In this document: piece after piece, positions 34,401-45,963 of the stretch | Position numbering within the stretch: the stretch's first letter is position 1 | How the letters are laid out: the number at the start of each line of letters is the position of its first letter | IMG/VR virus record: IMGVR_UViG_3300033067_000628 | Location: 9,705-73,704 of that record | Reading direction: 5' to 3' (one strand) | DNA from: a virus | Taxonomy: Duplodnaviria > Caudoviricetes | DNA: 64,000 nt | Program-made: the position numbers and the translations under genes | The notes under the pieces: model-generated | Database searches by the model: none | What the model was told of the DNA's origin: nothing | Seen by the model: only the letters and a program-made list of their open reading frames with translations

Positions 34401-35191
34401 GATGCTTGTATGCCAACGAAAGCAACAGGAACGTGGCCTGTATTGTCATAGTTCTTTATACCATCAGCTAAAGTAGCTTCAGTAGCAAGTCTAGAATCTA
34501 AGTTGGCAACATCAGAAGTTTGAATAGCTAGCTTACGTGCTAAGTTAGCTTGCCATTCGTCATAGGTACTTTCTTTAATATCAGCTCCATAAGACTTAGC
34601 TAAGTTAAAGTCTTCAGGACCAATTGGACCAACGCCACCAATGACTTCACGTATCTCTTGGTTGGCTTGAGCTATAATAGATTCATTAGCAACTCGTATA
34701 GACTTTTCAATCAAAGCCTTATCAGGAGACTTAGCATTGTTCTCTGTGAACTTATTATACAGAGCATCATTAATTACATTATTCTGAACAGATGTAATAG
34801 GAGATACTCTAAAGAGCGCTATTAAAGGGAGCAGACCTTTCTTGATATGCTCAGTGCCACTGAATAGCATTGTGACTTGTATGTCAGCATAACCAGTACC
34901 ATCATCGGTCAAGAAGTCTGTACTTGTTCTAGCACCTTGTACGGCTATGACAGCCTTACTTTCAAGTATCTTAATGTCCTGTACTTCACCACCGTATATG
35001 TGAGGACCTATCTTAAACTTAGTAGACTCAGTAGACTTAGAAGTATAGATATGTCTATTATACTTCCTAATGAGAGACTCTTCATCAAGACCAGATACAG
35101 TATTAGCGTTATCACTCTTTGGGTTCCAAAGGTAATTAACGAATGATGTTACATCTACATCAGATGTATCGTCAGTATATTCTAGAGTCAT
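28418..35191 (-). CDS. Giant multidomain baseplate hub protein (gp27/Mu gp44-like module plus tube-fold-like N-domains), 2257 aa
   Basis: Hub-type segment NAIESIDIMSDK...LKQGRKIQIRAGYS...VFTGRVAEVIYGDVVTVVAQG, and later GRAIKPWDVIYLDD...IEVENVVHHYSVSAGWVTNI. N-terminal FSFKRLQGESYPTAQHMG. Hydrophobic C-terminus. Confidence 0.7.
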   Translation of the reverse strand: MTLEYTDDTSDVDVTSFVNYLWNPKSDNANTVSGLDEESLIRKYNRHIYTSKSTESTKFKIGPHIYGGEVQDIKILESKAVIAVQGARTSTDFLTDDGTGYADIQVTMLFSGTEHIKKGLLPLIALFRVSPITSVQNNVINDALYNKFTENNAKSPDKALIEKSIRVANESIIAQANQEIREVIGGVGPIGPEDFNLAKSYGADIKESTYDEWQANLARKLAIQTSDVANLDSRLATEATLADGIKNYDNTGHVPVAFVGIQASSHPDFINSVIVVLTLKRISVSNYLRNSLQYRSIKNTATPDARRAFWLNRAITMYMDRYYRDFFVTPDVTLSFKGDDLQLKYFVAYEKLVDLNLNPKNDIFKDDRTGTSVTQLSYSIRNKFSFKRLQGESYPTAQHMGVSSGNATISLRTNDLEMFRDINTYKSAADFFVRASDRSTRFNGWKLRSIVTDLFNDQEYNLSIDQKISNSGKLFYPLSFVTSTVSEIPNGRDVTINFAETSPNFFTDYGFVILSNGLTVTIAHDFFASLFENSKNKDDFYSQFVFYGEGADDEQFSILNPDTMIAALLEPDVYSKGGRADSTGTFVEDPLGVATRFLKAILEDKVISGKVQSANIGIGPTLDQLGSVGLDILKELVSLGVADSETFNGMTLDDETAGALMNSMLVFSSNVTEEQKKQIFGLFKKITNKFSRGDLYVILHNKLINGDVTLKNLYAEHLFATIVNKRKVPVTDYLYSRLSVANAFDALERAIEIKGDIINKDANSALDKSRSNDDTLTYGPDGTLTTTKKRATCYPDFIYITYEELFDLVEPNFPDDYWKLFAYTYHDYGIINPNIADYSNDPTESLKDNNVQRAQLELITKANSPVSPAVFFYRERELEDLRNNLSKEYSEWFAQLDSVTINIPYDVEYLVTEAGRLNGELKSRVTELNSSGQYEVTEKTVESIKKIDQLTLASIIERMPSYIRNNTVFNNEVVRKAGEDLSIAAFRQAKKTYSNGIYNEMSDTELVQILKRNGSEKTKFLSYAYGLDTLSFNTPIFQTTHLGKEVATYKRNHGLQGGAVFRTAINLSAQISGKTWDQVMTDAITKAAAGLDDGVTISNSVYGESQNTMLKITQSLSDLRHDMIRAFPVFKLYLIEYNSGDRIFVRDNFYGYNAIESIDIMSDKNDADLATIRIADPLQLLQASSFSDKISWNKGQVNGLVLPNSGDDLTSNNFLSRLELKQGRKIQIRAGYSADAENLDIVFTGRVAEVIYGDVVTVVAQGWKAELLGKQVSFELRSIENSSVKDLVVRTIRDANPAGMGQVLSQEETNELLKVSANVALDGALTKSIQNQYGTLGGESGYAGGEGLTLAGTWNFLGNRKAGVDLRLKNIWVPDVNKSRFNPIADVDTTGWEARSWVIPLQPAWDLLANTTNYTWDYICQVVPYDGEATLFYGKPDQLYYFTKGSPKRNYEYRKVLAKEEKEVVEDFQRVFDGFVSSYYFGNNSMDLILGDPNIVTVSKDQDFITQPLIVKNKKAGNLVTIDPEGFSYLGYKLLVHPNVNTSSYASITEGVGGAVAIKANYARSFKDDMDYISNVLGNKDKAAYLMIASFYGFSTDYLSKNFSPLMDTIDTITGPLPNQELNKFRISLIESITPLDNVDRGNEIFTRANIDSTAAKSLLDNLNDGLVADMVFNTYEPVTTLTSVGFTQKSSFIDDVSEFFEGLTFQGGLNFEQRNKADRFIAALTEAVAAYPSILAQLGKTQEEIVAKLKTRDGFNFLLNQAKFNLGSISKSISSVGDAVNIQTVFDPIFQAMANRLHLDIHNISFFLKDDIVNYIIDSLVYFRAYVHFFREYIQASAIDINVKDRISDIKNSGFGQFPPALNMKPFRDYHYISSGVDIIKNNIGASVREMSNTILVRYPASITTDNDTWYKVGLFQGDYDESVVEDVEWTIFPTKQETDHMGFQFNEHISLENKKMYVHTDLNVRRRDQAAKVATNIMAKQIRPMYRNNILLTGRAIKPWDVIYLDDKYIDMNGPIEVENVVHHYSVSAGWVTNIIPHALCHANPGNSMMQVAVFNNRMDKIYSIIDYTLWGLVVMTAIPTLGASFSLAGAAAGKAGQFALERSILPFVSKGVQTKIGEKLAQKLATEQLTTAKLRTLGQILATNGFTTFKAFQYTQTADIAAGAFTRYFYMNAGVADLTTPVLISPLMFKGVPFEAGLNGQENSYWSLTSKIQWGYQDLITGIDNWTNYIAGIFGDKSPIAQQTALRSLGIDKK

Positions 35192-38100
35192 TAGTATAGG
35201 TCTCCCATGTCTGGGTGTGTAAAGTCACTGTTCTCATATGCGCTAGCTAGTCGATCTTGGACCCAGCCATTTCTATAAGTCCTGTCGTCCTGGATAGTTA
35301 TACTACCATAGTTAGGAGCATAGACAGATGTAGCTATTTCATCACGGATGTCTTGGGTATTGACAGAAGCATAGCTTGCATTAGTTTGAGTATAGCTTGC
35401 ACCTGGAGAGGCAACCCGAACAGTAGGAGGCCTCATGTTAATAGGATTGATATACGAGTTGTCATTCTCCTGAGTAACCATAGGCTCAGGAGGCAACGTA
35501 GTAGATCTCATTCTAAAGGCATTAGAAGACTTAAGTGATGGCCTGTCTAGTTCATCAGAAGTGAACATACTAGACAAGGCACGTAAGCCTACTACAGCAG
35601 CACCAACACCAGCTACTAGTTTCCAATTCTTCTTAAACCACTGCTTTGACTTGCCAGCTACTTCACTAGTAACTTCAGCAGCTTTACCTTCTACTTGAGC
35701 AGCCTTAGCCTTAACAGCTTCGTTAGCTTTAGCAATCTGGTCTTGCATAGAAACCCGGCTATCTCCCTTAAGGAGCTTAGCAGGATCAATACCTTCATGC
35801 TGGAACATCTCAGTTATCTTCTCTAGGTCACCAGGACCAGAGGTAGCTCTACGGTAGATATCAGGGAACGAGCTAGCATTCTTTAAGCCTTCAGGTGTAA
35901 AGATAGAAGCTCTCATGTGTGCCATAGCACCATAGATACGACCCACCTGTTGGCTCATTGTTTCGATAGCTTGTTCTGGTGTAGCTACTTTAGGACCATA
36001 GTAACGCAGCTTACCAACTTCATTCATCTTAGTGAAGAATCTTCTAGCAGAGCTAGTGGCTTCTTCAACTGCCATCTCTGGCGTATAGGCATCACCAAGC
36101 TTATCAATTTGTTGCTTGACTCTATAGCCTACACCAAGGTAGTCTTTAACTAGCATCTCAGCTAAGTCACCACCCTTTTGAATTGGTGCTTGCAGGATGT
36201 TATGTTGGAATAGGGATACGTTACGCATCAATACTTTCTTATCGATGCCACCATCTGATAAGATTTTTTGATACTTAAGTATGTCACTCTCTGTGAAGGA
36301 TTGCCCAATAGGGCGCTTCTTAAAGTTACCTTTGTTCTTTAATAGCTTGTTGAGATTATCAGCTATAGTCTTAGGATGAGCATCAGACATTAGCTCATGA
36401 GAGAAGCCGAAGGTAGGATACTCAACCATGTAAGACACAGCAGGAATCTTACCGAAGCTAAAGAACTTCATGGCATATTCCATCGTGTTCTGATGAGATA
36501 GCTTCTGCTCTTTCATGAAGTCAGTAAGCAACATATCCTTGCCACTCTTCTCAGCAGCAGCCTGTAGCTCTTTTTGGTAAGACTGATATTCTGCAGAAGC
36601 ACCTTTTATTTGTGCTTGGAAGAACTCATGCATAGCAGCATCATCTGCTTCACCATACTTCTTAGGATCCATCATTAGTTCGATAGTATCCTTGTCGTTG
36701 TCTCTATGCATTCTCCATGTCAAGAAAGAGCCAACCAAAGCACGGGGTTCATGCAGAGCATTAATGCCAGTCTTGGTTACTTGATCTTCTGCCATTGGAT
36801 CAAACACCATCTTAACAACGTTAACGTGACCACCACCGTGTGTAGGGTTAGGGTATGCTACGCCCCAGATAGGCTCACCAGCTAAGAACTTGTCAAGTGT
36901 TTCTTGTGCAGCCTTCTCAGTATAGCCAGATCTATTAGGCATCTTAGAGAAAGCTTGTCTAGCCATATTCTCGGATATACCAACAGTGAAGTCCTTCTCA
37001 GTCAAGTTAGATGCAGACTCCATAGCTTCTGATACAGTCATACCTTTAGGCATTGGTCTGACTCTCATGCCACCAGGCATTGAAGCTGAAGATAAAACGT
37101 TCTTCTTAAGGAAGCCTCCGCTCTTACCAGTTCTAGCGTACTCTCTATATACACCTTGAACATATTGTTCTAGTGTACCTTTAACTGTACCCTTTTCACC
37201 AGGCTCATTACCAAGTGCAGATATAGCACCTAGTGTCTTGTACTCTAACGTATCAGAGCCTATACTCTTAGGAAGACCTGGAGTTAGATTCTGTAATGAA
37301 GGTGCAAAGTTTTTACCAATAGCCGGGACTGGAAGATATTTAACCTTAGCAGCATTCTCTGGCATGCCTGGTTCTTTAACCTTACCAAGCAATGGAACAT
37401 GGACCTCTTCACCAAGGTCTATATAGAATCCCTTTTGCAGATGTTGAGGACGATTACGTGAGCTGAATAGTTTACTATTGCTAAGCTGTTCTTCTAAGAA
37501 AGTACCTCTAGTTAAGTCCATTGAAGTGGACAGATCGCCAAAGGTTTCCATTGCTTCTTTACGAGACAAGACAGGAAGGCCTGTAGCCTTAACGGCATCA
37601 TCTCCAAGTAGAGGAGCAGTGATCATCCTGAAGTGACTATCTTTAGCAACACTCAAAGAGTTACTAGTAATGAATCCAGTATCAAAGAAGTCTTTATCAA
37701 TATTGAAGCCAGTCTTATTCTGCCACCAGCTAGCCATACGCATAAAGATAGGATTGTCCTTTGGCTTGATACCAGTCAACGACTCCATACCAGATCCATA
37801 TCTCTTGATAAGGTCTAGTCTTACACGGAAGGCGTTTTGTTGCCGCATGATATCGTCTGTTTCAGCAGCACGTTCCCATAGAGAATCTATAAAGGTTCTA
37901 GCACCAGGAGTGATACCAGAATCAGAATAGCCTAATAGGCTAGCCATACCTTTCTCAGAAGGACTATCAGTTGTGTATCCCTTAATCTGTCTGCTAGTGA
38001 AGCCCATCTTTTTAAGAGCTACATCACTAACCTTTTCAAACTCTGGTATGAAGTCCATATCTTCATACGGAGTATTTGGTATTAGATACTCTAACCCATC

Positions 38101-40578
38101 TTCTGACTTCTTTAGAATGAGCTTATTCTTAATGCCCATTTCTGAAGCTGCCTTCTCATATTCTCTATAGAACATAGAAGGACCAGATCCTTCACTAGAA
38201 GGAACAGACAAGCCAGCTAAGCCAGTACGGTGACCGAATATCTTCTCAGCATAAGCTTGAGAAGTTAAAGATTCTTCACTAGATATAATATCAGAGAAGT
38301 CAAATATACTTGTACCTTCAAGTACATCTTTACCAGGATTGAGCAAGCTAACTCTTTGATTGCCATGGTAAACAGATACAGAGGTAGGCGTACCACGAGC
38401 AGCAAAGTTAAGAGTTACATTGTCATCAAAGCTAGAGAAGTCAGCGCTAGTAAGGTAAGCAGCATGATATGGCAAGCCTTTAAAAGCTTTGCCAAGATTC
38501 TTGTATTGCTCTGGGTTAATCTCAATACCAAGGCCAGGAGCTTGATATCTCTTGTTTTTATTTAGAGACTCAAGTATATCAGCATAAGGTGTATCAGTCA
38601 AATCATCAGAGCCGGCTAGAGTTTTAAATACCTTCTCTAGGGATTGCTTACTAAATGCTTTCTTTAGGTTAGTAGTAGGACGTATAACATCCTTAAACAA
38701 CTCTGCTCCACTATGCGTAAGTATAGCACCAGCATCACCAAAGAGATTTTGGTTAACACCTAAACCAGCAGATGGAATATAGGTTGATACAACTGGTATT
38801 TTGGTAATAGGATTGACAAGACCTCTACCGAGTATCTTACCTTCTGCACCTCTAGTAGCCTTAATGCCTGCTTCATAGGAGCGGAAGTCTCCCATGCTCA
38901 TGCCTACAGTTTGAACTCTGGCTTCGCCAAATCGCTCTACTCTACTAGCAGCTATACGCTGTATACGCTCAGCATCTGTAATTTCACGAGGCTTACCAAA
39001 TTGAACGCCCTTCTTGCGCATAGCAGAAGAAGTGCTGCCAGGTATTAGATGCTGTTCTATTCCTTCAAGAGGAACCGTGCCGTCTTTAGGTTTAACTAGC
39101 CAGTCATAAGGGGACACACCTTGTGCCCGCATATCTAAGGCTTGCTGTGTAGCTTTCTTATATGCTTCCCATATAGGCTCAGGGTCAGTCATATTCGAAC
39201 CAGCAAAGATAATATCTCTGATGGCATTATTACGACCAAGCATCACACCAGAGTCTATTGCCTCGTAAGACATATAGAAGCCCGGCGTCATCGCTACTTC
39301 ACCTCTAGAGCTAGGTGAGCTTAGCAGATTACTTAAAGACTTACGAGATCTATTTCTGCCAGTCTTAAGAGCTATTGGTATATTGCGCCTACCAAGACCA
39401 GAGTAAGGATCGAGTACACCCTTTTCAAATTCACTAAGTGCTATCTCGGCAGCAGGTACAACTTTATGATCAACTACCTGTTGCTTGGCAAGTCTAAGTC
39501 TATCACTGACATTAGCTGTGCCTCTTCTAAAGCCCCACTTGGTTACGTCTTCACTTACGTTCTCAGCATAGATAGGCTGGAACGAATCAAGCAAACCATG
39601 TTGACCAGCGTATATACCACCAGTCTCTGATATAGTAAACGCTAGGTTTTCACCACCAGCAGCAGACAGCTTATTGACTGTAGCTCTAAACCGTTCACCA
39701 TATTGTTCACCCCAGAAGTTCTTAACTCTACTAATGAACTCTTCAGGGCTAGCACCAGCTCTGGTGCCAGAAAGATAATAAGACTTAGAGTCCTTGCTGA
39801 TACCTTTGAGAATAGTACTGATACCAAATGGATCAGACTTAGATCCAACTGTATCCGCTAGTACATCAAGACCCGTGACGCCTGCTCTGTTAAGGATCTG
39901 TTTGAACTCAGGAAGTCTTCCTTCAGAAGCAGCCTTCTCATATGTAGCTTCGAAGACACCTTGTATCTGCTGAGCAACATTAAGTTCAGTAACGGGCTTG
40001 CCAAGTCTTTGGAATGACCTATTAAGGAAGTCAACAGTAGTGCCAGGCTTAGCTGTCTTACCTACGAGACCTACTATATCTTCAAGCTTAGTACTTGGTA
40101 CTAGATCATTAAGGTCTGTAAAGAAAGCTCTAGACAAAGACTTAACATCAACGAAGCCAGCTTCATCAGCCCTGAACGCACTAGGGCCAGGACCTTCTCT
40201 AAAGGTAAAGCCCTTAGTCTTGGCAGCGTTCCAAGACAAGATAGCATTGCTTGTATCTGGGGAGTTCATACCCCAGCGCTTGGCTAGATAGTTTACAACC
40301 TTAGGATCTCCAATGAGACCTTGATCAAGCATACCTTTGCTTGCTCTAAGAGGTTCATCACCAGTCTTCTTAAGAGTTGAGAATGGTAATCTATATAGCT
40401 CAGAGGTTTGTAAGGTAGCACCAAGTGCTAGTTGGTCTCCAACCTTATCACTCTCAGCAGCTAGACCAGGAGTATGTGGTAAATGAACGAAGCCCAGCTT
40501 AACAGTCTTTTGACGATTGAGCAAAGAACCGAAAAGGTCCTTCATCATTTGCTCTCTAAACTGCAGCGGCTCTTCCAT
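35191..40578 (-). CDS. Single-chain two-barrel (DPBB) RNA polymerase-like protein, probably virion-associated, 1795 aa
   Basis: Collinear beta'-like motifs: GKSGGFLKKNVL (aa 1151), VGISENMARQAF (G1200), LDKFLAGEPIWGVAYPNPTH (Y1242), RALVGSFLTWRMHRDNDKD (D1293-D1297, nt 36688-36702). Upstream beta-like motifs: NLFGDAGAIL (D615) and YHGNQRVSLLNPGKD (H738). Confidence 0.72.
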   Translation of the reverse strand: MEEPLQFREQMMKDLFGSLLNRQKTVKLGFVHLPHTPGLAAESDKVGDQLALGATLQTSELYRLPFSTLKKTGDEPLRASKGMLDQGLIGDPKVVNYLAKRWGMNSPDTSNAILSWNAAKTKGFTFREGPGPSAFRADEAGFVDVKSLSRAFFTDLNDLVPSTKLEDIVGLVGKTAKPGTTVDFLNRSFQRLGKPVTELNVAQQIQGVFEATYEKAASEGRLPEFKQILNRAGVTGLDVLADTVGSKSDPFGISTILKGISKDSKSYYLSGTRAGASPEEFISRVKNFWGEQYGERFRATVNKLSAAGGENLAFTISETGGIYAGQHGLLDSFQPIYAENVSEDVTKWGFRRGTANVSDRLRLAKQQVVDHKVVPAAEIALSEFEKGVLDPYSGLGRRNIPIALKTGRNRSRKSLSNLLSSPSSRGEVAMTPGFYMSYEAIDSGVMLGRNNAIRDIIFAGSNMTDPEPIWEAYKKATQQALDMRAQGVSPYDWLVKPKDGTVPLEGIEQHLIPGSTSSAMRKKGVQFGKPREITDAERIQRIAASRVERFGEARVQTVGMSMGDFRSYEAGIKATRGAEGKILGRGLVNPITKIPVVSTYIPSAGLGVNQNLFGDAGAILTHSGAELFKDVIRPTTNLKKAFSKQSLEKVFKTLAGSDDLTDTPYADILESLNKNKRYQAPGLGIEINPEQYKNLGKAFKGLPYHAAYLTSADFSSFDDNVTLNFAARGTPTSVSVYHGNQRVSLLNPGKDVLEGTSIFDFSDIISSEESLTSQAYAEKIFGHRTGLAGLSVPSSEGSGPSMFYREYEKAASEMGIKNKLILKKSEDGLEYLIPNTPYEDMDFIPEFEKVSDVALKKMGFTSRQIKGYTTDSPSEKGMASLLGYSDSGITPGARTFIDSLWERAAETDDIMRQQNAFRVRLDLIKRYGSGMESLTGIKPKDNPIFMRMASWWQNKTGFNIDKDFFDTGFITSNSLSVAKDSHFRMITAPLLGDDAVKATGLPVLSRKEAMETFGDLSTSMDLTRGTFLEEQLSNSKLFSSRNRPQHLQKGFYIDLGEEVHVPLLGKVKEPGMPENAAKVKYLPVPAIGKNFAPSLQNLTPGLPKSIGSDTLEYKTLGAISALGNEPGEKGTVKGTLEQYVQGVYREYARTGKSGGFLKKNVLSSASMPGGMRVRPMPKGMTVSEAMESASNLTEKDFTVGISENMARQAFSKMPNRSGYTEKAAQETLDKFLAGEPIWGVAYPNPTHGGGHVNVVKMVFDPMAEDQVTKTGINALHEPRALVGSFLTWRMHRDNDKDTIELMMDPKKYGEADDAAMHEFFQAQIKGASAEYQSYQKELQAAAEKSGKDMLLTDFMKEQKLSHQNTMEYAMKFFSFGKIPAVSYMVEYPTFGFSHELMSDAHPKTIADNLNKLLKNKGNFKKRPIGQSFTESDILKYQKILSDGGIDKKVLMRNVSLFQHNILQAPIQKGGDLAEMLVKDYLGVGYRVKQQIDKLGDAYTPEMAVEEATSSARRFFTKMNEVGKLRYYGPKVATPEQAIETMSQQVGRIYGAMAHMRASIFTPEGLKNASSFPDIYRRATSGPGDLEKITEMFQHEGIDPAKLLKGDSRVSMQDQIAKANEAVKAKAAQVEGKAAEVTSEVAGKSKQWFKKNWKLVAGVGAAVVGLRALSSMFTSDELDRPSLKSSNAFRMRSTTLPPEPMVTQENDNSYINPINMRPPTVRVASPGASYTQTNASYASVNTQDIRDEIATSVYAPNYGSITIQDDRTYRNGWVQDRLASAYENSDFTHPDMGDLY

Positions 40579-40585
40579 TTATAAC

Positions 40586-43500
40586 CTATCTTAAAGCATC
40601 CTGGTAGAACATAAATCTATTGTTTTTCCGTTGATCTGAGTAATGACCTTCATACCAGTCAATACTTTGATCACTACCTCTTTGAGAGAATTTAGTAGCT
40701 GACCCAAATGGGTTCTTAGTATTAAACATTGCCTCTAGATTTAGTCTTACGCTAGCAGCTGTAGGATCAGTTATAGACACAGCGGGACTGGTAAGGCCCG
40801 GGAACCTCAGGTCAGCCTCTCTCGCTTGTCCTGGGTAATAGCCGAACCTGTGGAGGTTATCTGATACACCATTGATACCACCCTGTATGGCTTTGATTCT
40901 AATAGCTGTATCAGGGACAGAAGGATTCCAGCCCATCCAATCTTCTGCTGGTAGGCTGTGCTCCTTAAAATAATCAAGTGTAGTTTGGTCTGCTACCATC
41001 TGTGCATTAGTACCGGTATCACCAGCATTGTTTTGCCACACTGCCGATAAGACTTGCTTCATTCTGTCAGGCACTACAGCAAGGATCTTCTGTCTCTTAT
41101 CGGCAGGAGCATTAACGAACTCATCATAGAATGGTCTATCGTATCTATTGAGTGTAGCTTTGTATCTAGTGTCATCACCAGTAGCCTGGAACTGAGCTAA
41201 GCCATAGACCTGAGTTCTCTTTGCTTCTCTAGAATAGATCATAGCAAGCTTCATGTTGCCTTGCTTCTCCGCCATATCTTGTAGAGATCTATCCTTTACA
41301 TACTTCAAGTAATCAAAGTAATCCTCTGTCTCACGTTCCTTCTTGACATGCTCAGGAACAAATCCATGCTCTAGTGTACCAGTAGACACTGCTCTAGCAG
41401 TAGACCCTGCAAGACCTATCAATCCAAAGACAGCAGTTGTAGATGCAGGGTTATCCTTTAATGCAGGGAATGGACTTAAGAAGCTAGCAAAGTTACTAGT
41501 GGCAATACTACCAATAGCTAATGCCTTGGTGGTTGCCGTTAATGGGTCTTGGCCAATAACATCATAGAAGGCAGGACGTACAATGCTTTCGTATGGATTA
41601 TCCCAGTCAGCATATGTCTCACCCTCAACTCTATTCTTGACATAAACTCTATATGGATCTGTGAATGGGAATAGCTTAGATCCAAGTATTGGCTTCTCTG
41701 ATAAGAAGCCTTGAGTTACTTTGTTCCATCCAGTTCGGACTGTAGTAGTGAAAGCGTTTTCGTTTGCTCTAGCAGCTTGTTCTTGTGAGCTAGGTGTATA
41801 GCTCTTGAAGTTAAACTCATTCTCTTTAGCAGCTCTTTGCTCTGTAGCCTGTGCTACCTTACTCTTCCAGTAAGGAGACAAGTCCATCTGATTTACCTTT
41901 TGCTGATAAGCAAAGTATGCAGATGAATAAGGAGCTACGTCAGATAGAATTAAGAATCTATCTACGTCACTATATACTCCAGTTATACCAGACTCTAGCC
42001 TGTTAACTGATTCATATCCAGCACCAGGGAGTCTATACTCACCACCAGGTATCTTAGTATAGCTATCACCTTTAGTGAAGTCAGTAAAGTATGTTCTATC
42101 AGCTTCAAACTCAGAAGCACTACCAGGTAACCAAGTGGGTTGCGTATTACGTATAGGGTTAATCTGTTGATTGATCTTAGATGCAACACCATAGTCTGAT
42201 AAGATAAAGCGTCTTAGGAATTCAGTCTCACCAAGCAAACCACCTAAGTTCATATCATAGAATGATCTACTATAGCTTGCCATGTTAGTGGCATCTGCCA
42301 TCTTATAGCCTTGATCAAACTTGATACCGAATAAACCTAATGCATACTTCCAGACACCCGACGGTTCTAGTGCTACGTTAGTCCACTTATCTACTCTGTC
42401 TCTAATGTTATCTGGTCTATTATATGGTACTAAAGACTTAGGGACATCAGAGATACCAAGCTCTTTTGCAGCTGTTATTGGTATACTTTTATCAGCTATA
42501 TTAGAAGCAACAACTGCATCAGTTTGTTCTTCTATATGCATCTGCTTAGTTGGCTTAATAATTTCACCAATCGTATCTGCTAGAACAGGTCCAAAGATAG
42601 GGACCTCTTCAAACATCTTAGCAGTTACAGGATATGGTCTATCGTAATAAGTCTTACGCTCTAATGCATATGGGTCAACAACATTACGTAAGCCGAACCA
42701 GTTACTGAAGTTAGGAAGCATAGAGCCATACTTCCAATAGCCTTCTTCAGAACCATAGAGGTTTGTATTATATGGCTGTGCCTTAAGTTTAGCATACCAG
42801 CTAGGCTCATAGTGATCTATAGCTCCACCTTCGAAAGGTTGATAACCTAATGTCCACCATCTACTTTTTTTGATAGGGACCTTATCCTCACCAGAGTATT
42901 CTCTTTTGAGAGATTCAGAAGACTGTCCTGGTTGTGGACCACCAACAGCAGCATATATAGAAGCTGCAAAGGCAAGACCTTTGCCGACTTTGCCAGTCTT
43001 CTCCCAAGCACCTAGTGCTTTAACACCAGCAGCAATAGTACCAACTACACCAACACTAAGTCCTGGTGTAAGATCATTCTCAACATAATCAACAGCTTTG
43101 GTAATACCAAGAGATTCACGAACCTTCTGTTGACCTACTCTTAGATTAACATAAGCATCAGCAGCTAACTCAGATGGTTTCTCTCCTATTACTTTGCCAG
43201 CAAGATAGTCAGTATACTTGACTGCTTCTGTGCCAAGCATGTATGCTGTTGGTATAGCAGCTACACGTAAGGTATTAGCTAATAGGTTACCAGATGGTTT
43301 AAATCCTATCCCTAACAAGCTAGCACTGGCTAGCTTATTGAGACGGATCATCATATAGTTAGTAAAGTCGTATGCCTTATCTAGATTAGATGCACTAGCA
43401 GCATAATGCTTAGGACGTATATTAAAGTCCTTATCGCCAGTGATTGTAATACCAGTAGGACCATCAGATGGCAATCGCTTACCAGCAGTAGTCTCAAGGC

Positions 43501-44992
43501 TTTGAATACCACCTCTGCCGAAGCCAGCATATAGATCGCTCTTATCGATCTTACCTTCAACACCGGCACCCTTGTTTACAAGAACAGCATCTTCATTAGT
43601 GCCAGTGTAAAGCTGGAATCTGTTCCACCATCCACGTAGACCTTTAAAAGGTCCAGTCTTAGGTGTAAGCTCACTAATGTCAATTATCCCTTGACCCGAG
43701 TAACTACCTTTGGTTATCTCTTTACCAGAGTCTAATACAGTCTCAGGTATTACAGGAGATAAGATACGACTATAGAATGAGTCGTGGGTATACTTATAGT
43801 TCCTAGCATATACCTCAGCGTCACCTCTACCAACAGCACCAGAGTTCTTAATACCCTGTAAGACAGTCTGTATAAATCCACCACGCTTCTCGTGGAACTT
43901 AGGACCTACACCAGTCTCGTCTTGTAGAGTTTGGAACCATGTCTTATCAGGAACAGGTTCGCCCTCTTTAGGTTCTCTAACCTTAGGAGGTTCTTCTCTT
44001 AGCTTAGCTGCAACGAATCTAGCATCATTAACTTCGCCAAGCGTTTTGCCTGTTGCTATCTTCTCTACATTAGTACCAAGAGATTTGTATACATCTCCAC
44101 CAATGAATATCTTCTGTGCAGCAGTACCAGACTCAACACCAAGAGAGGCGACCTTTCTTGGATTCTCAAAGAAAGATTTAGCTGTACTTAATAGGCCAAA
44201 CGGGTTAAAGGTTTGAGATACAGTATCAAGGAAATCATATGGCCTTGTTATTCTAGTATCTATTAATCTGCCATCTTTAGCCTTGAATAGCTTAGAGTCA
44301 ACTATTTGATCAGTCTTAACAAGACCTTGATCAAGAGCTCTTTGTACGATACCAATCTCAAGACCACCACTCTTAACAGGGCCTGCAGCTCTGCTAATGA
44401 AGTCACCTTGTCTAGCTATTAACTCACCAAAGGTAAGAGGAGTTAAGTCCTTCTGTAAGAAGCCTAAGCCCGCTTGCTCTGGGTTACTGCGATATAGCTT
44501 ATCAAGATTACCCTTAAATAGTCTTTCAAGGTTAGGCCTATTAGTAGCATTACGTGGATCGTATATAAAGCTTAGAGCAGAACCTAAGTCTTGTATACTA
44601 GAATAGCTATCGAGTCTAGCAGAACCCTGGGCCGTTTGTATTACAGCTCCACCAGAGTCTTTAGGCAATGACAGTAGCCTATAAAGACCATCTGCTATCT
44701 CAGGCTCTATGTTTGCTTTAGACCCTTGCTTACTGAGACTACCTAAGAATCTAGCCCCAGATCCAGCTAGCTCTGAGAGTTCACCAAATAGGTTTCTATT
44801 AAATTGCTTGCCTAGTATCTGTGCGCCAATGGCAATGACACCAAGCTTAGCCATCCATTCAGAATCTCTTCTGTTGGATTCTTCTACTGACTTTTGATAT
44901 ACCTGTTCGCTATTGTCACGACTAAACGAAGACGGTGCTATATACCGTTCTGGTAAAGGGCGTGACTGTTCACGATCTGGTATATCAGTCAT
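40586..44992 (-). CDS. Tape-measure-like / ejected internal virion protein, 1468 aa
   Basis: Directly follows two tail assembly chaperones. Long and largely helical, with several Gly/Ala-rich hydrophobic segments (e.g. GLSVGVVGTIAAGVKALGAW). No enzymatic motif recognised. Confidence 0.6.
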   Translation of the reverse strand: MTDIPDREQSRPLPERYIAPSSFSRDNSEQVYQKSVEESNRRDSEWMAKLGVIAIGAQILGKQFNRNLFGELSELAGSGARFLGSLSKQGSKANIEPEIADGLYRLLSLPKDSGGAVIQTAQGSARLDSYSSIQDLGSALSFIYDPRNATNRPNLERLFKGNLDKLYRSNPEQAGLGFLQKDLTPLTFGELIARQGDFISRAAGPVKSGGLEIGIVQRALDQGLVKTDQIVDSKLFKAKDGRLIDTRITRPYDFLDTVSQTFNPFGLLSTAKSFFENPRKVASLGVESGTAAQKIFIGGDVYKSLGTNVEKIATGKTLGEVNDARFVAAKLREEPPKVREPKEGEPVPDKTWFQTLQDETGVGPKFHEKRGGFIQTVLQGIKNSGAVGRGDAEVYARNYKYTHDSFYSRILSPVIPETVLDSGKEITKGSYSGQGIIDISELTPKTGPFKGLRGWWNRFQLYTGTNEDAVLVNKGAGVEGKIDKSDLYAGFGRGGIQSLETTAGKRLPSDGPTGITITGDKDFNIRPKHYAASASNLDKAYDFTNYMMIRLNKLASASLLGIGFKPSGNLLANTLRVAAIPTAYMLGTEAVKYTDYLAGKVIGEKPSELAADAYVNLRVGQQKVRESLGITKAVDYVENDLTPGLSVGVVGTIAAGVKALGAWEKTGKVGKGLAFAASIYAAVGGPQPGQSSESLKREYSGEDKVPIKKSRWWTLGYQPFEGGAIDHYEPSWYAKLKAQPYNTNLYGSEEGYWKYGSMLPNFSNWFGLRNVVDPYALERKTYYDRPYPVTAKMFEEVPIFGPVLADTIGEIIKPTKQMHIEEQTDAVVASNIADKSIPITAAKELGISDVPKSLVPYNRPDNIRDRVDKWTNVALEPSGVWKYALGLFGIKFDQGYKMADATNMASYSRSFYDMNLGGLLGETEFLRRFILSDYGVASKINQQINPIRNTQPTWLPGSASEFEADRTYFTDFTKGDSYTKIPGGEYRLPGAGYESVNRLESGITGVYSDVDRFLILSDVAPYSSAYFAYQQKVNQMDLSPYWKSKVAQATEQRAAKENEFNFKSYTPSSQEQAARANENAFTTTVRTGWNKVTQGFLSEKPILGSKLFPFTDPYRVYVKNRVEGETYADWDNPYESIVRPAFYDVIGQDPLTATTKALAIGSIATSNFASFLSPFPALKDNPASTTAVFGLIGLAGSTARAVSTGTLEHGFVPEHVKKERETEDYFDYLKYVKDRSLQDMAEKQGNMKLAMIYSREAKRTQVYGLAQFQATGDDTRYKATLNRYDRPFYDEFVNAPADKRQKILAVVPDRMKQVLSAVWQNNAGDTGTNAQMVADQTTLDYFKEHSLPAEDWMGWNPSVPDTAIRIKAIQGGINGVSDNLHRFGYYPGQAREADLRFPGLTSPAVSITDPTAASVRLNLEAMFNTKNPFGSATKFSQRGSDQSIDWYEGHYSDQRKNNRFMFYQDALR

Positions 44993-45597
44993 TATATCTT
45001 ACCTATCTCATCCCAGTCTATTTGATCTGCAGACATCATATCAGTGATGTCATCAGTAGAAGACATACCAGGCGCTACTGGGTATACTTCAGGATTGATT
45101 AGCTTACCAAAGTCAATAGGCTTGCCAAGTGCTTCTTCTGCTTTAGCAAACAATTCTATCTGTTCTTCCAGTGTCATCTTCTGTACATCAGAAGGAGTAT
45201 AGGCCCTGAAGGCTGTACATATATAAATCTCTATTATAGTTTGAGCTTGTTGGGCAACTTGTCTTTTCTCTTCTAGTACCTTAAGGAAAGTTTCTGCATT
45301 TTGGAATCCAGACAATACCAGTATATGTTCTGCTATATGATCTGCATGGATTGCTTTGCTATGAGATAAGTAGTAGTCTAATCCTCTTGGTGCATCATTA
45401 TATAAGGTTGCTATTCTAATAAGAGTATCATTGATAGTCACACCATCTAGATACTTCTCTAATGATATCACTGTATTGTACTCATCAAAAGTAAGGGGCC
45501 TGACTATGAAGTCAAGGCCCTCTACTTGTATCAAATACAGAGACTTATAACCATCAGCTTTAAGGCTGATTATCTTGTCTATTGTATCTACCTTCAT
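44992..45597 (-). CDS. Tail assembly chaperone (second), 201 aa
   Basis: GLDFIVRPLTFDEY motif; acidic and helical; sits between the tube genes and the tape measure. Confidence 0.65.
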   Translation of the reverse strand: MKVDTIDKIISLKADGYKSLYLIQVEGLDFIVRPLTFDEYNTVISLEKYLDGVTINDTLIRIATLYNDAPRGLDYYLSHSKAIHADHIAEHILVLSGFQNAETFLKVLEEKRQVAQQAQTIIEIYICTAFRAYTPSDVQKMTLEEQIELFAKAEEALGKPIDFGKLINPEVYPVAPGMSSTDDITDMMSADQIDWDEIGKI

Positions 45598-45600
45598 TCA

Positions 45601-45963
45601 TTATAGCTTCACTGGTTCTGCATCAAGGCCACCGAAGCCTGAGGCTACGAGAATGGCATCACTAATTAGCTGTACGGTACCAGCGGGGAGTTTCTCTATT
45701 GGATCTGTTGAATAGATCAGGCAGACTTCAAGAAGACTCTCTATTTCTTTCTCAGCTACTTCAAGCTTAGCTTGATCATCAATAGCTTGAGCCATTGCTT
45801 CGTTACGAGCTTTAAGCAAGGTACGCCATTCAGATCGTTCTACGAATCGATAGACGAATTCCTTACCAGCTATTTTAACGTATAGCGGTTCATAGCCTTG
45901 TTCTTTGGCACCTGCTGATGCTGCTAAGGCTGCTTCACTCGGACCTTTAACTTCTGTATTCAT
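45601..45963 (-). CDS. Tail assembly chaperone (first), 120 aa
   Basis: GKEFVYRFVERSEW...LPAGTVQLISDAILVASGF. Typical size and position. Confidence 0.7.
   Translation of the reverse strand: MNTEVKGPSEAALAASAGAKEQGYEPLYVKIAGKEFVYRFVERSEWRTLLKARNEAMAQAIDDQAKLEVAEKEIESLLEVCLIYSTDPIEKLPAGTVQLISDAILVASGFGGLDAEPVKL

Follow-up and report, generated by a model that had tools for sequence, protein, structure and literature searches.

This locus raises the question of what a large phage encodes in a giant gene lying after its tail assembly chaperones and before its baseplate hub: a tape measure protein or, as the original prediction proposed, an RNA polymerase (RNAP). The window, a stretch of 64,000 nucleotides, comes from a phage of the Bacillus phage 0305phi8-36 lineage, and the source contig (73.7 kb) contains structural genes only, with no terminal repeats and no early region. 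The gene in question, P0001, occupies 35191..40578 on the minus strand, starts with ATG and encodes 1795 amino acids (aa), as originally called, and is the second of three giant genes in a tail operon. Upstream lie the tail assembly chaperone pair (44992..45963, minus strand; 120 aa and 201 aa), whose products have an N-terminal domain in common (BLASTP E 4e-5 over ~100 aa), as do gp143/144 of 0305phi8-36 (PMC2147016), and the giant gene P0003 (40586..44992, minus strand; 1468 aa), which is a homologue of the 0305phi8-36 virion protein gp145 and ends 7 nt before the start of P0001. Downstream, the P0001 stop codon and the ATG of the third giant gene, P0002 (28418..35191, minus strand; 2257 aa), overlap by one base (TAATG), in agreement with the proposed translational coupling. 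On the basis of PHROG 20474 and 8809, the annotation of gp147 and of vB_AbaM_ME3 gp037, and published work (PMC2147016), P0002 is the positional counterpart of the 0305phi8-36 hub gp147, whose product line, "endolysin", recurs in the phrog_20474 label. The original tape-measure label for P0003 was not supported; in 0305phi8-36 that role is assigned to the gene at the P0001 position.

That gene is gp146, annotated as "hypothetical tape measure". Like gp146, the P0001 gene is one gene removed from the chaperone pair, following the chaperones and a gp145-like gene and preceding the hub, which is the position of a tape measure gene. The order sheath, tube, chaperone pair, first giant gene, P0001 gene and hub was conserved in eight loci (L001-L008), and in 8/8 the P0001 gene was on the same strand as the tail genes and overlapped or abutted them. 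Judged from gene arrangement, P0001 would be expressed late, with the structural genes, as is characteristic of virion RNAPs. A related-locus search with five family sequences returned only two IMG/VR loci.

All six polymerase-like motifs quoted in the original prediction were present in P0001 (aa 611-620, 738-751, 1151-1162, 1199-1210, 1228-1247 and 1279-1301), and the DxDxD reported as intact was found as DNDKD at aa 1293-1297 (36688..36702, minus strand). An exhaustive search of representative sequences yielded ~30 metagenomic homologues of ~1750-1800 aa; a word-indexed protein search, with either the single sequence or the alignment as query, gave no match beyond P0001 itself. Conservation of DxDxD, which had been proposed as a check, was complete: R-D-x-D-x-D was invariant in 26/26 homologues. 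At 21-35% identity, R1292, D1293, D1295, D1297, P1245 and H1247 never varied among 26-27 homologues, and K523 and R742 (both 25/25), Q1463 (26/26) and K1468 (27/27) were likewise invariant. Ranked by conservation, the top five 9-mers of the core were HRDNDKDTI, FGHRTGLAG, PNPTHGGGH, FGDAGAILT and LQAPIQKGG, with the DxDxD window in first place.

Several of these conserved elements have plausible counterparts in known RNAPs. FGDAGA (aa 613-618; 38725..38742, minus strand), in which G614 was found in 25/25 and position 615 is occupied by 23 D and 2 E, is a candidate counterpart of the acidic loop of the second double-psi beta-barrel (DPBB-B; NFEDS in E. coli, GDGATG in phage P23-45), as judged against the structure-based alignment in Suppl. 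Fig. 8 of PMC10770324. The basic residue R742 (38353..38355, minus strand; 25/25 R), which belongs to the HGNQRV motif of the original prediction, falls in model strand E242-247 of the beta-like barrel. PNPTHGGGH (aa 1243-1251; 36826..36852, minus strand; strand E738-744) is the counterpart of beta' NRAPTLH with Pro replacing Arg/Lys; P1245 and H1247 were found in 26/26, and position 1243 is occupied by 24 P and 2 A. DNDKD, a putative Mg-binding Asp triad (R1292 and the three Asp in 26/26), lies in the model in a loop joining a helix to the last barrel strand. QAPIQKGG (aa 1463-1470; 36169..36192, minus strand) may be a trigger-loop base, resembling in sequence NAPVDNAKQ of phi14:2, VDQSKQG of QDE-1 and the corresponding element of P23-45 gp96 (Suppl. 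Fig. 9 of PMC10770324).

The P0001 sequence by itself does not take the resemblance beyond chance. Given its size and Asp content, one DxDxD is expected 0.31 times, and two other proteins of the window also carry one. A Pfam scan, including RNA_pol_Rpb1_2, Rpb2_6 and RdRP, matched neither P0001 nor any of 21 family members; a PHROG scan of P0001 was likewise negative, as was tblastn against 50,697 GenBank phages. Searches of PDB sequences by phmmer and profile, with P0001 or the family, were empty, and 8H2M/8H2N were not recovered. When the family profile was aligned with E. coli RpoC by hhalign, the top alignment fell exactly at [22 protein letters not shown], with an E of 0.17; E. coli RpoB (beta), 0305phi8-36 gp99 and Moorella phage CDS0027 gave no match. 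The expected number of DxDxD motifs and the lack of a significant sequence match to RNAPs would both suit the idea that a conventional, largely helical tape measure protein carries RNAP-like motifs by chance. It is conservation, together with the predicted fold, that lifts the resemblance above chance.

A template-free AlphaFold model of aa 500-1520, built from an input alignment of 29 sequences, had a mean pLDDT of 79.6 and a pTM of 0.77. Among the top 50 Foldseek matches in the PDB, only RNAP large subunits were found. An unbiased comparison with 48,161 chains by VIA-align, a tool with a stated background Z of 7-8, matched aa 501-910 (37849..39078, minus strand) to beta/Rpb2-type subunits (Z 9.9-11.2) and aa 977-1520 (36019..37650, minus strand) to beta'/Rpb1-type subunits (Z 8.3-9.7). 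The first module, which includes the DPBB-B barrel, aligned with plastid RpoB (9epc_C; Z 12.2, 284 aa, rmsd 5.0) and with vaccinia Rpo132, ASFV and Rpb2 subunits (Z ~11), and the second with Drosophila Rpb1 (9mu7_A; Z 9.7, 339 aa), human Pol I A190 (Z 9.5, 382 aa) and M. tuberculosis beta' (Z 8.3, 377 aa). Within the latter, stand-alone DPBB domains aligned with aa 1167-1333 (36580..37080, minus strand), namely 7dbo_B (Z 7.3, 84/86 aa, rmsd 2.6), the designed DPBB 7dvc_A, CDC48-N and VAT-N; the model thus predicts a DPBB-A barrel holding DNDKD as its metal-binding loop. The closest ESM Atlas models were fused Rpb2_6+Rpb1_2 proteins of 900-1000 aa (TM 0.43-0.50, 548-594 residues aligned), and matches in BFVD included many RNAP subunits and crAss-like giant proteins. 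TM-scores against known RNAPs were low (0.14-0.50), and Z values of 8-12 are moderately above background.

The neighboring protein P0003 served as a control. Folded by the same procedure (pLDDT 79.4), it reached no better than a Foldseek E of 0.16 and a Z of 6.1, and neither Foldseek nor VIA-align found a known fold for it. The long alpha-helical ruler of a tape measure protein was not seen in the model of aa 500-1520, which is a globular, mixed alpha/beta fold with two barrels and no long helix, and a helical or membrane-associated look is confined to the last ~300 aa of P0001. The purely helical, tape-measure-like structure that would have spoken against the original prediction was thus not observed. 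As the unbiased search returned RNAPs for both halves and in the right order, but nothing for the control, chance resemblance is extremely improbable and, as far as a predicted structure allows, is already refuted. Fold and DxDxD conservation, both positive, support the two-barrel, RNAP-like reading.

Whether such a domain would still be catalytic is a separate matter, and some motif residues are non-canonical: PxPTH replaces [RK]xP, the canonical Gly separating the last two Asp is Lys, and a Lys of beta is replaced by Arg. These substitutions would fit an exapted pseudo-polymerase, in which the domain has lost catalysis and serves a structural or DNA-binding role, for example gripping the DNA end or plugging the tube. 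DxDxD was also absent from the slot proteins of 0305phi8-36 and of a further locus, L014, so the slot functions without a polymerase site there. However, in proteins that share 21-35% identity, the Asp triad and the Arg before it, the GD loop, the two basic residues and the Q/K pair are invariant and more conserved than any other part, as purifying selection on a catalytic site would produce. Furthermore, the active crAss and P23-45 enzymes deviate from NADFDGD too. We consequently consider a dead domain unlikely. The deviations have another consequence. The survey signature [RK]xP-x(20-100)-DxDxD (PMC10770324), which serves to filter searches and does not define a structure, does not match P0001, in whose family position 1243 is Pro or Ala and never Arg/Lys; the sole [RK]xP upstream of the P0001 DxDxD, KMP at 1212, is not conserved. 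Surveys using this signature would miss the P0001 family because its motif is PxPTH.

Known two-barrel enzymes share features with P0001 to different degrees. Multisubunit RNAP large subunits were the best structural match for each half, and non-virion chains of AR9 and phiKZ were among the matches; unlike P0001, these enzymes consist of separate, Pfam-detectable subunits (split into 4-5 polypeptides in the jumbo phages) with canonical NADFDGD and K-x-x-K. YonO-type RNAPs (SPβ YonO, gp99 and the Atlas PF00562+PF00623 clusters) resemble P0001 in carrying both barrels in one chain, beta-like and then beta'-like, but are ~900-1250 aa, non-virion and Pfam-recognisable, contain cysteine and lack a membrane helix. 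A search of 0305phi8-36 with PF00623 gave no match. Single-chain enzymes spanning both halves of the model were QDE-1 (Z 8.5), P74-26 gp62 (Z 7.7), RDR2 (Z 7.2) and P23-45 gp96 (Z 6.8 over both barrels, 291 aa). Since QDE-1 and RDR2 are RNA-dependent, their presence among the matches could be taken to indicate a virion-delivered two-barrel enzyme with another main task, such as replication priming, RNA-templated synthesis (QDE-1/RDR) or acting mainly as a motor that pulls in the ~200-kb genome. T7 and N4 are established examples of genome entry powered by transcription. On the other side, the best structural matches are DNA-dependent RNAP subunits, and every phage virion two-barrel enzyme characterised so far transcribes early genes; a different main task is accordingly unlikely.

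The remaining regions of P0001 bear on its location. The N-terminal region (aa 1-500; 39079..40578, minus strand) has conserved columns in the family alignment A1 but no Pfam match, and an Atlas feature search gave only unnamed clusters below 0.85. The connector (aa ~910-1170) overlaps the beta'-like module as aligned (977-1520). A hydropathy scan predicted a transmembrane helix at aa 1654-1672 (35563..35619, minus strand), with the family pattern NWKxxAGxxGGLxGLR. This helix belongs to a C-terminal module (35194..35631, minus strand) that continues with a Pro-rich linker and an I-x-D-S/D-R...N-W end and that hhalign and HMM comparisons also detected in slot-2 proteins from 0305phi8-36 and vB_BceM_WH1 (for gp146, hhalign E 1.6e-3 with probability 16% and HMM E 4.6e-5; for WH1 gp095, HMM E 6e-4; both HMM values in tiny search sets). 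By mass spectrometry gp146 is a virion protein, of which only the last 60 aa are reported to be conserved (PMC2147016). It resembles P0001 in its C-terminal membrane helix, its end motif and its lack of cysteine, but it is 2537 aa long, carries no DxDxD and is not matched by the polymerase-core part of the family profile; a DIETTG of gp146, considered as an exonuclease motif, had no Pfam support.

Cysteine was absent from P0001 and from 20/20 full-length homologues, where ~11 would be expected, and from all slot-1 and slot-2 proteins of the lineage; the 0305phi8-36 hub and the non-virion RNAP gp99 contain 10 each. P0003, which is also cysteine-free and carries a glycine-rich hydrophobic segment (aa 644-662), is probably a co-ejected partner; it is not a paralogue of P0001, and its Atlas feature search returned only unnamed clusters below 0.85. 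A similarity of P0003 aa 1149-1205 to sigma-factor domain 2 was discounted as background (Z 4.3-5.8 over ~47 residues).

Non-virion two-barrel RNAPs, such as 0305phi8-36 gp99, occur in many phages, and the presence of P0001 in the virion is something that we infer, so that P0001 might instead be an active polymerase that is not virion-delivered, either a late non-virion RNAP or one acting in the producing cell. This would leave unexplained why its gene is coupled within the chaperone, giant 1, giant 2 and hub block in every locus, why its C-terminal membrane helix and end module are common to the virion protein gp146, and why it has no cysteine, as opposed to 10 in gp99; we regard it as unlikely. 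The tail operon, the gp146 slot, the C-terminal membrane helix and the absence of cysteine lend circumstantial support to the packaging and ejection originally proposed.

Cultured relatives seem to carry the same unannotated polymerase feature. It appears to be present in gp095 of Bacillus phage vB_BceM_WH1, which is annotated as a virion structural protein, and probably in gp036 of Acinetobacter phage vB_AbaM_ME3, where hhalign of the family profile placed the top alignment on the catalytic block (E 0.18); BLASTP of P0001 against ME3 gp036 was not significant.

The nearest published analogue is gp96 of Thermus phage P23-45, a tape-measure-fused virion RNAP (PMC10770324; PDB 8H2M/8H2N). It shares with P0001 a single-chain two-barrel RNAP in a giant tail-lumen protein at the tape-measure gene position, membrane segment(s) C-terminal to the polymerase and a GDG/GDA-like DPBB-B loop. 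The two differ in that gp96 has 5002 aa, an N-terminal RNAP, a metallopeptidase domain and DFDGD, against DNDKD and no peptidase Pfam domain in P0001, and in that gp96 is clamp-less, whereas P0001 aa 977-1520 aligns from the Rpb1/beta' N-terminal end (chain residue ~20). The non-contractile tail of the siphovirus P23-45 measures 800 nm, whereas P0001 lies in a contractile-tail module beside a second giant protein; sequence similarity between P0001 and the gp96-like TMP-fused RNAP family was undetected. The crAss-like phi14:2 gp66 (PDB 6VR4) is likewise a giant virion protein whose core has two barrels; its Asp motif is non-canonical, given as DFDxD in a preprint (10.1101/2020.03.07.982082), its trigger-loop motif is similar to that of P0001, and it is encoded beside other giant virion proteins. 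In contrast to the P0001 phage, phi14:2 is a podovirus, and gp66 is virion-packaged with its gene lying outside a tube/sheath tail operon; 6VR4 was absent among the top 50 VIA-align matches to the P0001 model. The coliphage N4 virion RNAP is, like P0001, giant and devoid of cysteine, and is known to be ejected (PMC5795418), whereas ejection of P0001 is proposed here; it differs in its T7-like single-subunit fold and in belonging to a podovirus.

As a whole, we consider it somewhat probable that P0001, from a large 0305phi8-36-like myovirus, is a single-chain two-barrel (DPBB) RNAP built into a tail-lumen or ejection protein, and that it probably enters the cell with the DNA to initiate transcription; catalytic activity, a DNA template, packaging, ejection and timing are what we infer for it. 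Its predicted layout would run from the N-terminal domain (aa 1-500) through the beta-like module with DPBB-B and the connector to the beta'-like module, where DPBB-A with the invariant RDxDKD Asp triad would be followed by helices including the trigger-loop-like QAxIxKG, and then by a helical stretch, one membrane helix, the Pro-rich linker and the small conserved end module. In the mechanism that we propose, P0001 would be synthesized late, together with the tail, and the two-gene chaperone would help to load it beside the cysteine-free 1468-aa P0003, either within the tail tube or at its base. Upon sheath contraction, P0001 would exit the virion in an extended form, ahead of or with the DNA, and its C-terminal helix would serve as membrane anchor. 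The core would then refold on the cytoplasmic side and transcribe the first-entering genes without host RNAP, and might also assist genome uptake. A point against this scheme is that the folded core, of ~115 kDa, could not pass the tail tube without unfolding.

A broader and more tentative proposal is that the "tape measure" slot of the whole lineage encodes a cysteine-free ejected carrier, with a C-terminal membrane/hub module and an exchangeable enzymatic middle, that arose independently of the P23-45 fusion. The middle would be a two-barrel RNAP in the P0001 clade, the L013 clade, WH1 and probably ME3, and something else in 0305phi8-36 and L014. If this is true, P0001 would be the first RNAP delivered through a contractile tail tube, threaded unfolded and refolding in the cell beside a second conserved giant partner of the P0003 type.

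Virion RNAPs allow the phage programme to start without the host enzyme and to escape host-directed shut-off. Four forms are known: T7-like (N4), multisubunit (phiKZ, AR9), two-barrel cargo (crAss-like podoviruses) and, since 2024, tape-measure-fused (a Thermus siphovirus). An RNAP at the tape-measure position has so far been published only for one long-tailed Thermus phage, and the P0001 family would extend this form to contractile-tailed jumbo phages. Motif and profile surveys would miss the family, which suggests that the delivery of polymerases through tails has evolved more than once and is more widespread than supposed. The absence of cysteine from both giant proteins across the lineage offers a simple general marker for finding other ejected proteins, and the cultured relatives, WH1 and probably ME3, make directly testable how a core of ~1000 residues passes a tail tube and refolds.

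The gene for the RNA polymerase (RNAP)-like protein P0001 is a single ORF (35191–40578, minus strand) and the middle one of three giant genes in a row, which encode proteins of 1468 (P0003), 1795 (P0001) and 2257 aa (P0002, the hub counterpart). The giant genes are located downstream of the terminase, portal, major capsid and sheath genes and two tube-like genes, and are followed by a baseplate-wedge gene, all on one strand; the gene order was the same in all eight loci examined. The stop codon of the P0001 gene overlaps the ATG of the next gene (TAATG), and its start lies 7 nt after the end of the P0003 gene. This spacer (40579–40585; GTTATAA on the coding strand) contains no Shine-Dalgarno (SD)-like purine run, which may be a hint of a host not dependent on SD pairing. 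Directly upstream of the giant genes, two small ORFs of 120 and 201 aa have an N-terminal domain in common (E 4e-5), an arrangement like the two-gene G/GT-like tail chaperones described in Bacillus phage 0305phi8-36 (PMC2147016). The 73.7-kb contig carries structural genes only and has no terminal repeats. In one metagenomic locus, a 138-aa Endonuclease_7 gene (PF02945; L008:15481–15897) separates the hub gene from the polymerase-like gene; its product is probably a homing endonuclease, comparable to the inteins of the adjacent giant gene.

All motifs on which the original prediction was built were found in P0001 at the positions reported, including DNDKD at aa 1293–1297 (36688–36702). From the P0001 sequence alone, the resemblance to RNAP is not significant: searches against Pfam, PHROG, PDB and GenBank phages gave no matches, the chance expectation for one DxDxD in a protein of this composition and length is 0.31, and two other proteins of the window carry one. 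When the profile of the P0001 family was compared with the real E. coli β′ by hhalign, the top alignment fell exactly on the NADFDGD segment (E 0.17); the same profile gave no match to E. coli β.

HMMER, run exhaustively over 1.84 billion representatives, yielded 30 P0001 homologues, all metagenomic, mostly of 1700–1890 aa and with 21–36% identity. Conservation was counted in alignments of 21 and 29 family sequences. The aspartates singled out in the original prediction proved to be conserved, since R1292, D1293, D1295 and D1297 were invariant (26/26). P1245 and H1247 (in PxPTH) were also invariant, as were K523, G614, R742, R903, R1174, Q1463 and K1468, and column 615 contained 23 D and 2 E. 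The five most conserved 9-mers between aa 500 and 1520 were HRDNDKDTI, FGHRTGLAG, PNPTHGGGH, FGDAGAILT and LQAPIQKGG. Comparison with the structure-based alignments of PMC10770324 suggested plausible counterparts for four of the five among known two-barrel RNAP elements, all of which, except the Asp loop, we infer: the candidates are the Mg loop and the first strand of DPBB-A (the double-psi β-barrel of the β′-like module), the acidic loop of DPBB-B (that of the β-like module) and the trigger-loop base. A polymerase-like core carrying these invariant residues could be a dead, exapted domain; we consider it likely that P0001 is a catalytically active, putative polymerase.

The region of aa 500–1520 was modelled using AlphaFold2 without templates from a 29-sequence alignment, giving a mixed α/β model with a mean pLDDT of 79.6 and a pTM of 0.77. 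In a Foldseek search against PDB, the best 50 matches were all RNAP large subunits (best E 3.3e-4), among them the AR9 and phiKZ non-virion RNAPs, E. coli β′, vaccinia Rpo132, and ASFV and Pol III subunits. VIA-align on these matches placed plastid RpoB on aa 501–910 with Z 12.2 (284 aa), and other second-largest subunits at Z of about 11. An unbiased VIA-align comparison with 48,161 chains returned just 26 chains with Z ≥ 8; ranks 1–7 were of the β/Rpb2 type on aa 501–910, and β′/Rpb1-type chains aligned on aa 977–1520 (Z 8.3–9.7, 230–380 residues). Both halves were spanned by the single-chain enzymes QDE-1 (Z 8.5, 375 aa), P74-26 gp62 (7.7), maize RDR2 (7.2) and P23-45 gp96 (6.8), and the stand-alone DPBB domains (VAT-N, CDC48-N and designed DPBBs) aligned on aa 1167–1333 (Z about 7.3, 84/86 residues, rmsd 2.6), where the model places DNDKD in the loop before the last strand of the barrel. 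The closest ESM-Atlas models were fused proteins with PF00562 and PF00623 (TM 0.43–0.50, 548–594 residues). As a control, P0003 folded in the same way (51 sequences, pLDDT 79.4) matched nothing in PDB, with a best E of 0.16 in Foldseek and a best Z of 6.1 in VIA-align. Because of these Foldseek, VIA-align and ESM-Atlas matches and the matchless control, P0001 very probably belongs by its predicted fold to the two-barrel polymerase superfamily, with the β-like part first, and chance resemblance is effectively excluded. The modelled structure thus bears out the proposal of a single-chain two-barrel RNAP-like protein, with RNAP matches for both halves and DPBB domains on the DNDKD barrel.

Relatives of P0003 and the sheath protein were found in only eight GenBank phage records, corresponding to six phages: Bacillus phages 0305phi8-36, vB_BceM_WH1, Edson and KLEB27-3, Moorella phage MTATph1 and Acinetobacter phage vB_AbaM_ME3. 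Their genomes are 177–235 kb, and metagenomic relatives occur on contigs of up to 279 kb, including ones of 159–279 kb. In 0305phi8-36, the chaperonins gp143/144 are followed by gp145, a P0003 homologue and virion protein by mass spectrometry; gp146 (2537 aa), likewise detected in virions by mass spectrometry and annotated as "hypothetical tape measure protein"; and gp147, which is annotated as "endolysin", with peptidoglycan-degrading domains, and has been described as a gp27-like hub (PMC2147016). This gene order and the gp146 annotation therefore place the P0001 gene in the assigned tape-measure slot of the 0305phi8-36 lineage (slot 2; that of P0003 and gp145 is slot 1). P0001 and gp146 have in common only the C-terminal ~115 residues, comprising a membrane helix, a linker and an I-x-D-D/S-R...N-W end (hhalign E 1.6e-3, probability 16%; HMM E 4.6e-5 in a set of 8), in agreement with the published remark that conservation of gp146 is limited to its last 60 residues (PMC2147016). 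No DxDxD was found in gp146 (L009:18419–26032). At aa 1223, gp146 contains YLDIETTGL, which we take to resemble the ExoI motif of DnaQ-like exonucleases; because Pfam gave no match for this reading, a different slot-2 enzyme in 0305phi8-36 is only a lead.

The slot-2 protein of WH1, gp095 (L016:14691–22238; 2515 aa, no cysteine), annotated as "virion structural protein", has the same C-terminal module as P0001 and, at aa 1958–2000, an almost canonical NRYPT-x38-KADHDGD, which was the top hhalign match to the P0001 family profile (E 0.0022, probability 13%). gp095, from a cultured phage, is likely a two-barrel RNAP that occupies the tape-measure slot and is not annotated as such. Among the BFVD matches of the P0001 model, the best was the unnamed A0A7R7G2L5_2 (E 1.2e-12), which may be gp095 or a similar protein. 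ME3 gp036 (L011:14367–19178), a hypothetical slot-2 protein of 1603 aa with a C-terminal hydrophobic helix and no cysteine, contains a single DxDxD, with REP 43 residues upstream (REP at aa 1174-x41-DHDQD at 1217). Two uncharacterised ME3 proteins were among the BFVD matches (one segment with E 4e-3, probability 0.99), with the accession unmapped to gp036. In a more distant metagenomic clade, the family HMM matched the slot-2 protein of L013 (1477 aa; E 3e-20), which contains ERDIDRD, whereas the L014 slot-2 protein has no DxDxD-type motif. Since gp095, gp036 and the L013 protein carry the motif and gp146 and the L014 protein do not, some branches of the lineage, as judged from sequence, have the core and others lack it. 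On the 190-kb contig of L013 (L013:13362–20993), the short slot-2 gene is separated from the hub gene by two extra genes (558 and 515 aa), an arrangement that may represent a split version of the longer slot-2 form.

The upstream giant P0003 (40586–44992, minus strand) belongs to a family of conserved virion proteins like gp145, with 69 homologues and no cysteine. It is more conserved than P0001, with identities of 48–63% versus 29–35% in the same phages. The model of aa 500–1468 (40589–43495, minus strand; pTM 0.76) is confident and mostly helical. Several relatives (P0037, P0062, P0066 and P0100) contain an intein (PF14890, Hint_2, LAGLIDADG_3); in L003 (4299–10004) it is flanked by LGGLFGE and TELIRRF, which puts the insertion point near aa 922 of P0003. 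Intein insertion points usually mark functionally critical sites.

Besides the gene order common to the eight loci, two features of P0001 bear on its delivery. It has a single predicted membrane helix near the C-terminus, and neither P0001 nor any of its full-length homologues (20/20) contains cysteine, where about 11 would be expected from the window average of 0.62%. Cysteine was likewise absent from P0003 and 15 homologues, and from all slot-1 and slot-2 proteins of WH1, 0305phi8-36, ME3, MTATph1, L013 and L014. Cysteine does occur in the 0305phi8-36 hub and in gp99, the non-virion RNAP of this phage (10 each), and in E. coli β (7) and β′ (15). The ejected N4 virion RNAP, noted for its lack of cysteine (PMC5795418), is similar to P0001 in this respect, and by this analogy the absence may be a circumstantial marker of passage through the envelope in an unfolded state. 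P0001 could be an active enzyme outside the virion, or an ejected enzyme with another main task; we favour its putative delivery with the virion, somewhat less firmly than its activity. P0001 would be synthesised late, and its loading into the tail would involve the chaperone pair and the upstream partner P0003; sheath contraction would expel P0001, the C-terminal helix would anchor it, and the refolded two-barrel core would transcribe the first-entering genes, a role modelled on that proposed for P23-45 gp96 (PMC10770324). The whole chain of two-barrel fold, catalysis and virion delivery has, in our estimate, slightly more in its favour than against it.

In the searchable literature, tape-measure-fused two-barrel RNAPs were found only for P23-45 and its Thermus relatives. 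For 0305phi8-36, jumbo-phage reviews mention only the gp99-type RNAP; nothing on WH1 was found in this literature, and the ME3 paper examined (PMC5795418) makes no mention of a polymerase-like slot-2 protein. The P0001 family is a new sequence family, and because it has PxP it would escape the published survey filter, [RK]xP...DxDxD (PMC10770324). P0001 would apparently be the first two-barrel RNAP of a contractile-tail module, where a second giant protein, also conserved, accompanies it as a partner. BFVD matches of the P0001 model also included "Minor tail protein [Siphoviridae sp. ctnpt50]" (E 7e-11, TMq 0.39) and a protein of Microcystis phage MaMV-DC that is uncharacterised (E 1.3e-4). 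As these proteins share the predicted fold, other phage lineages may also have two-barrel polymerases annotated as tail proteins.
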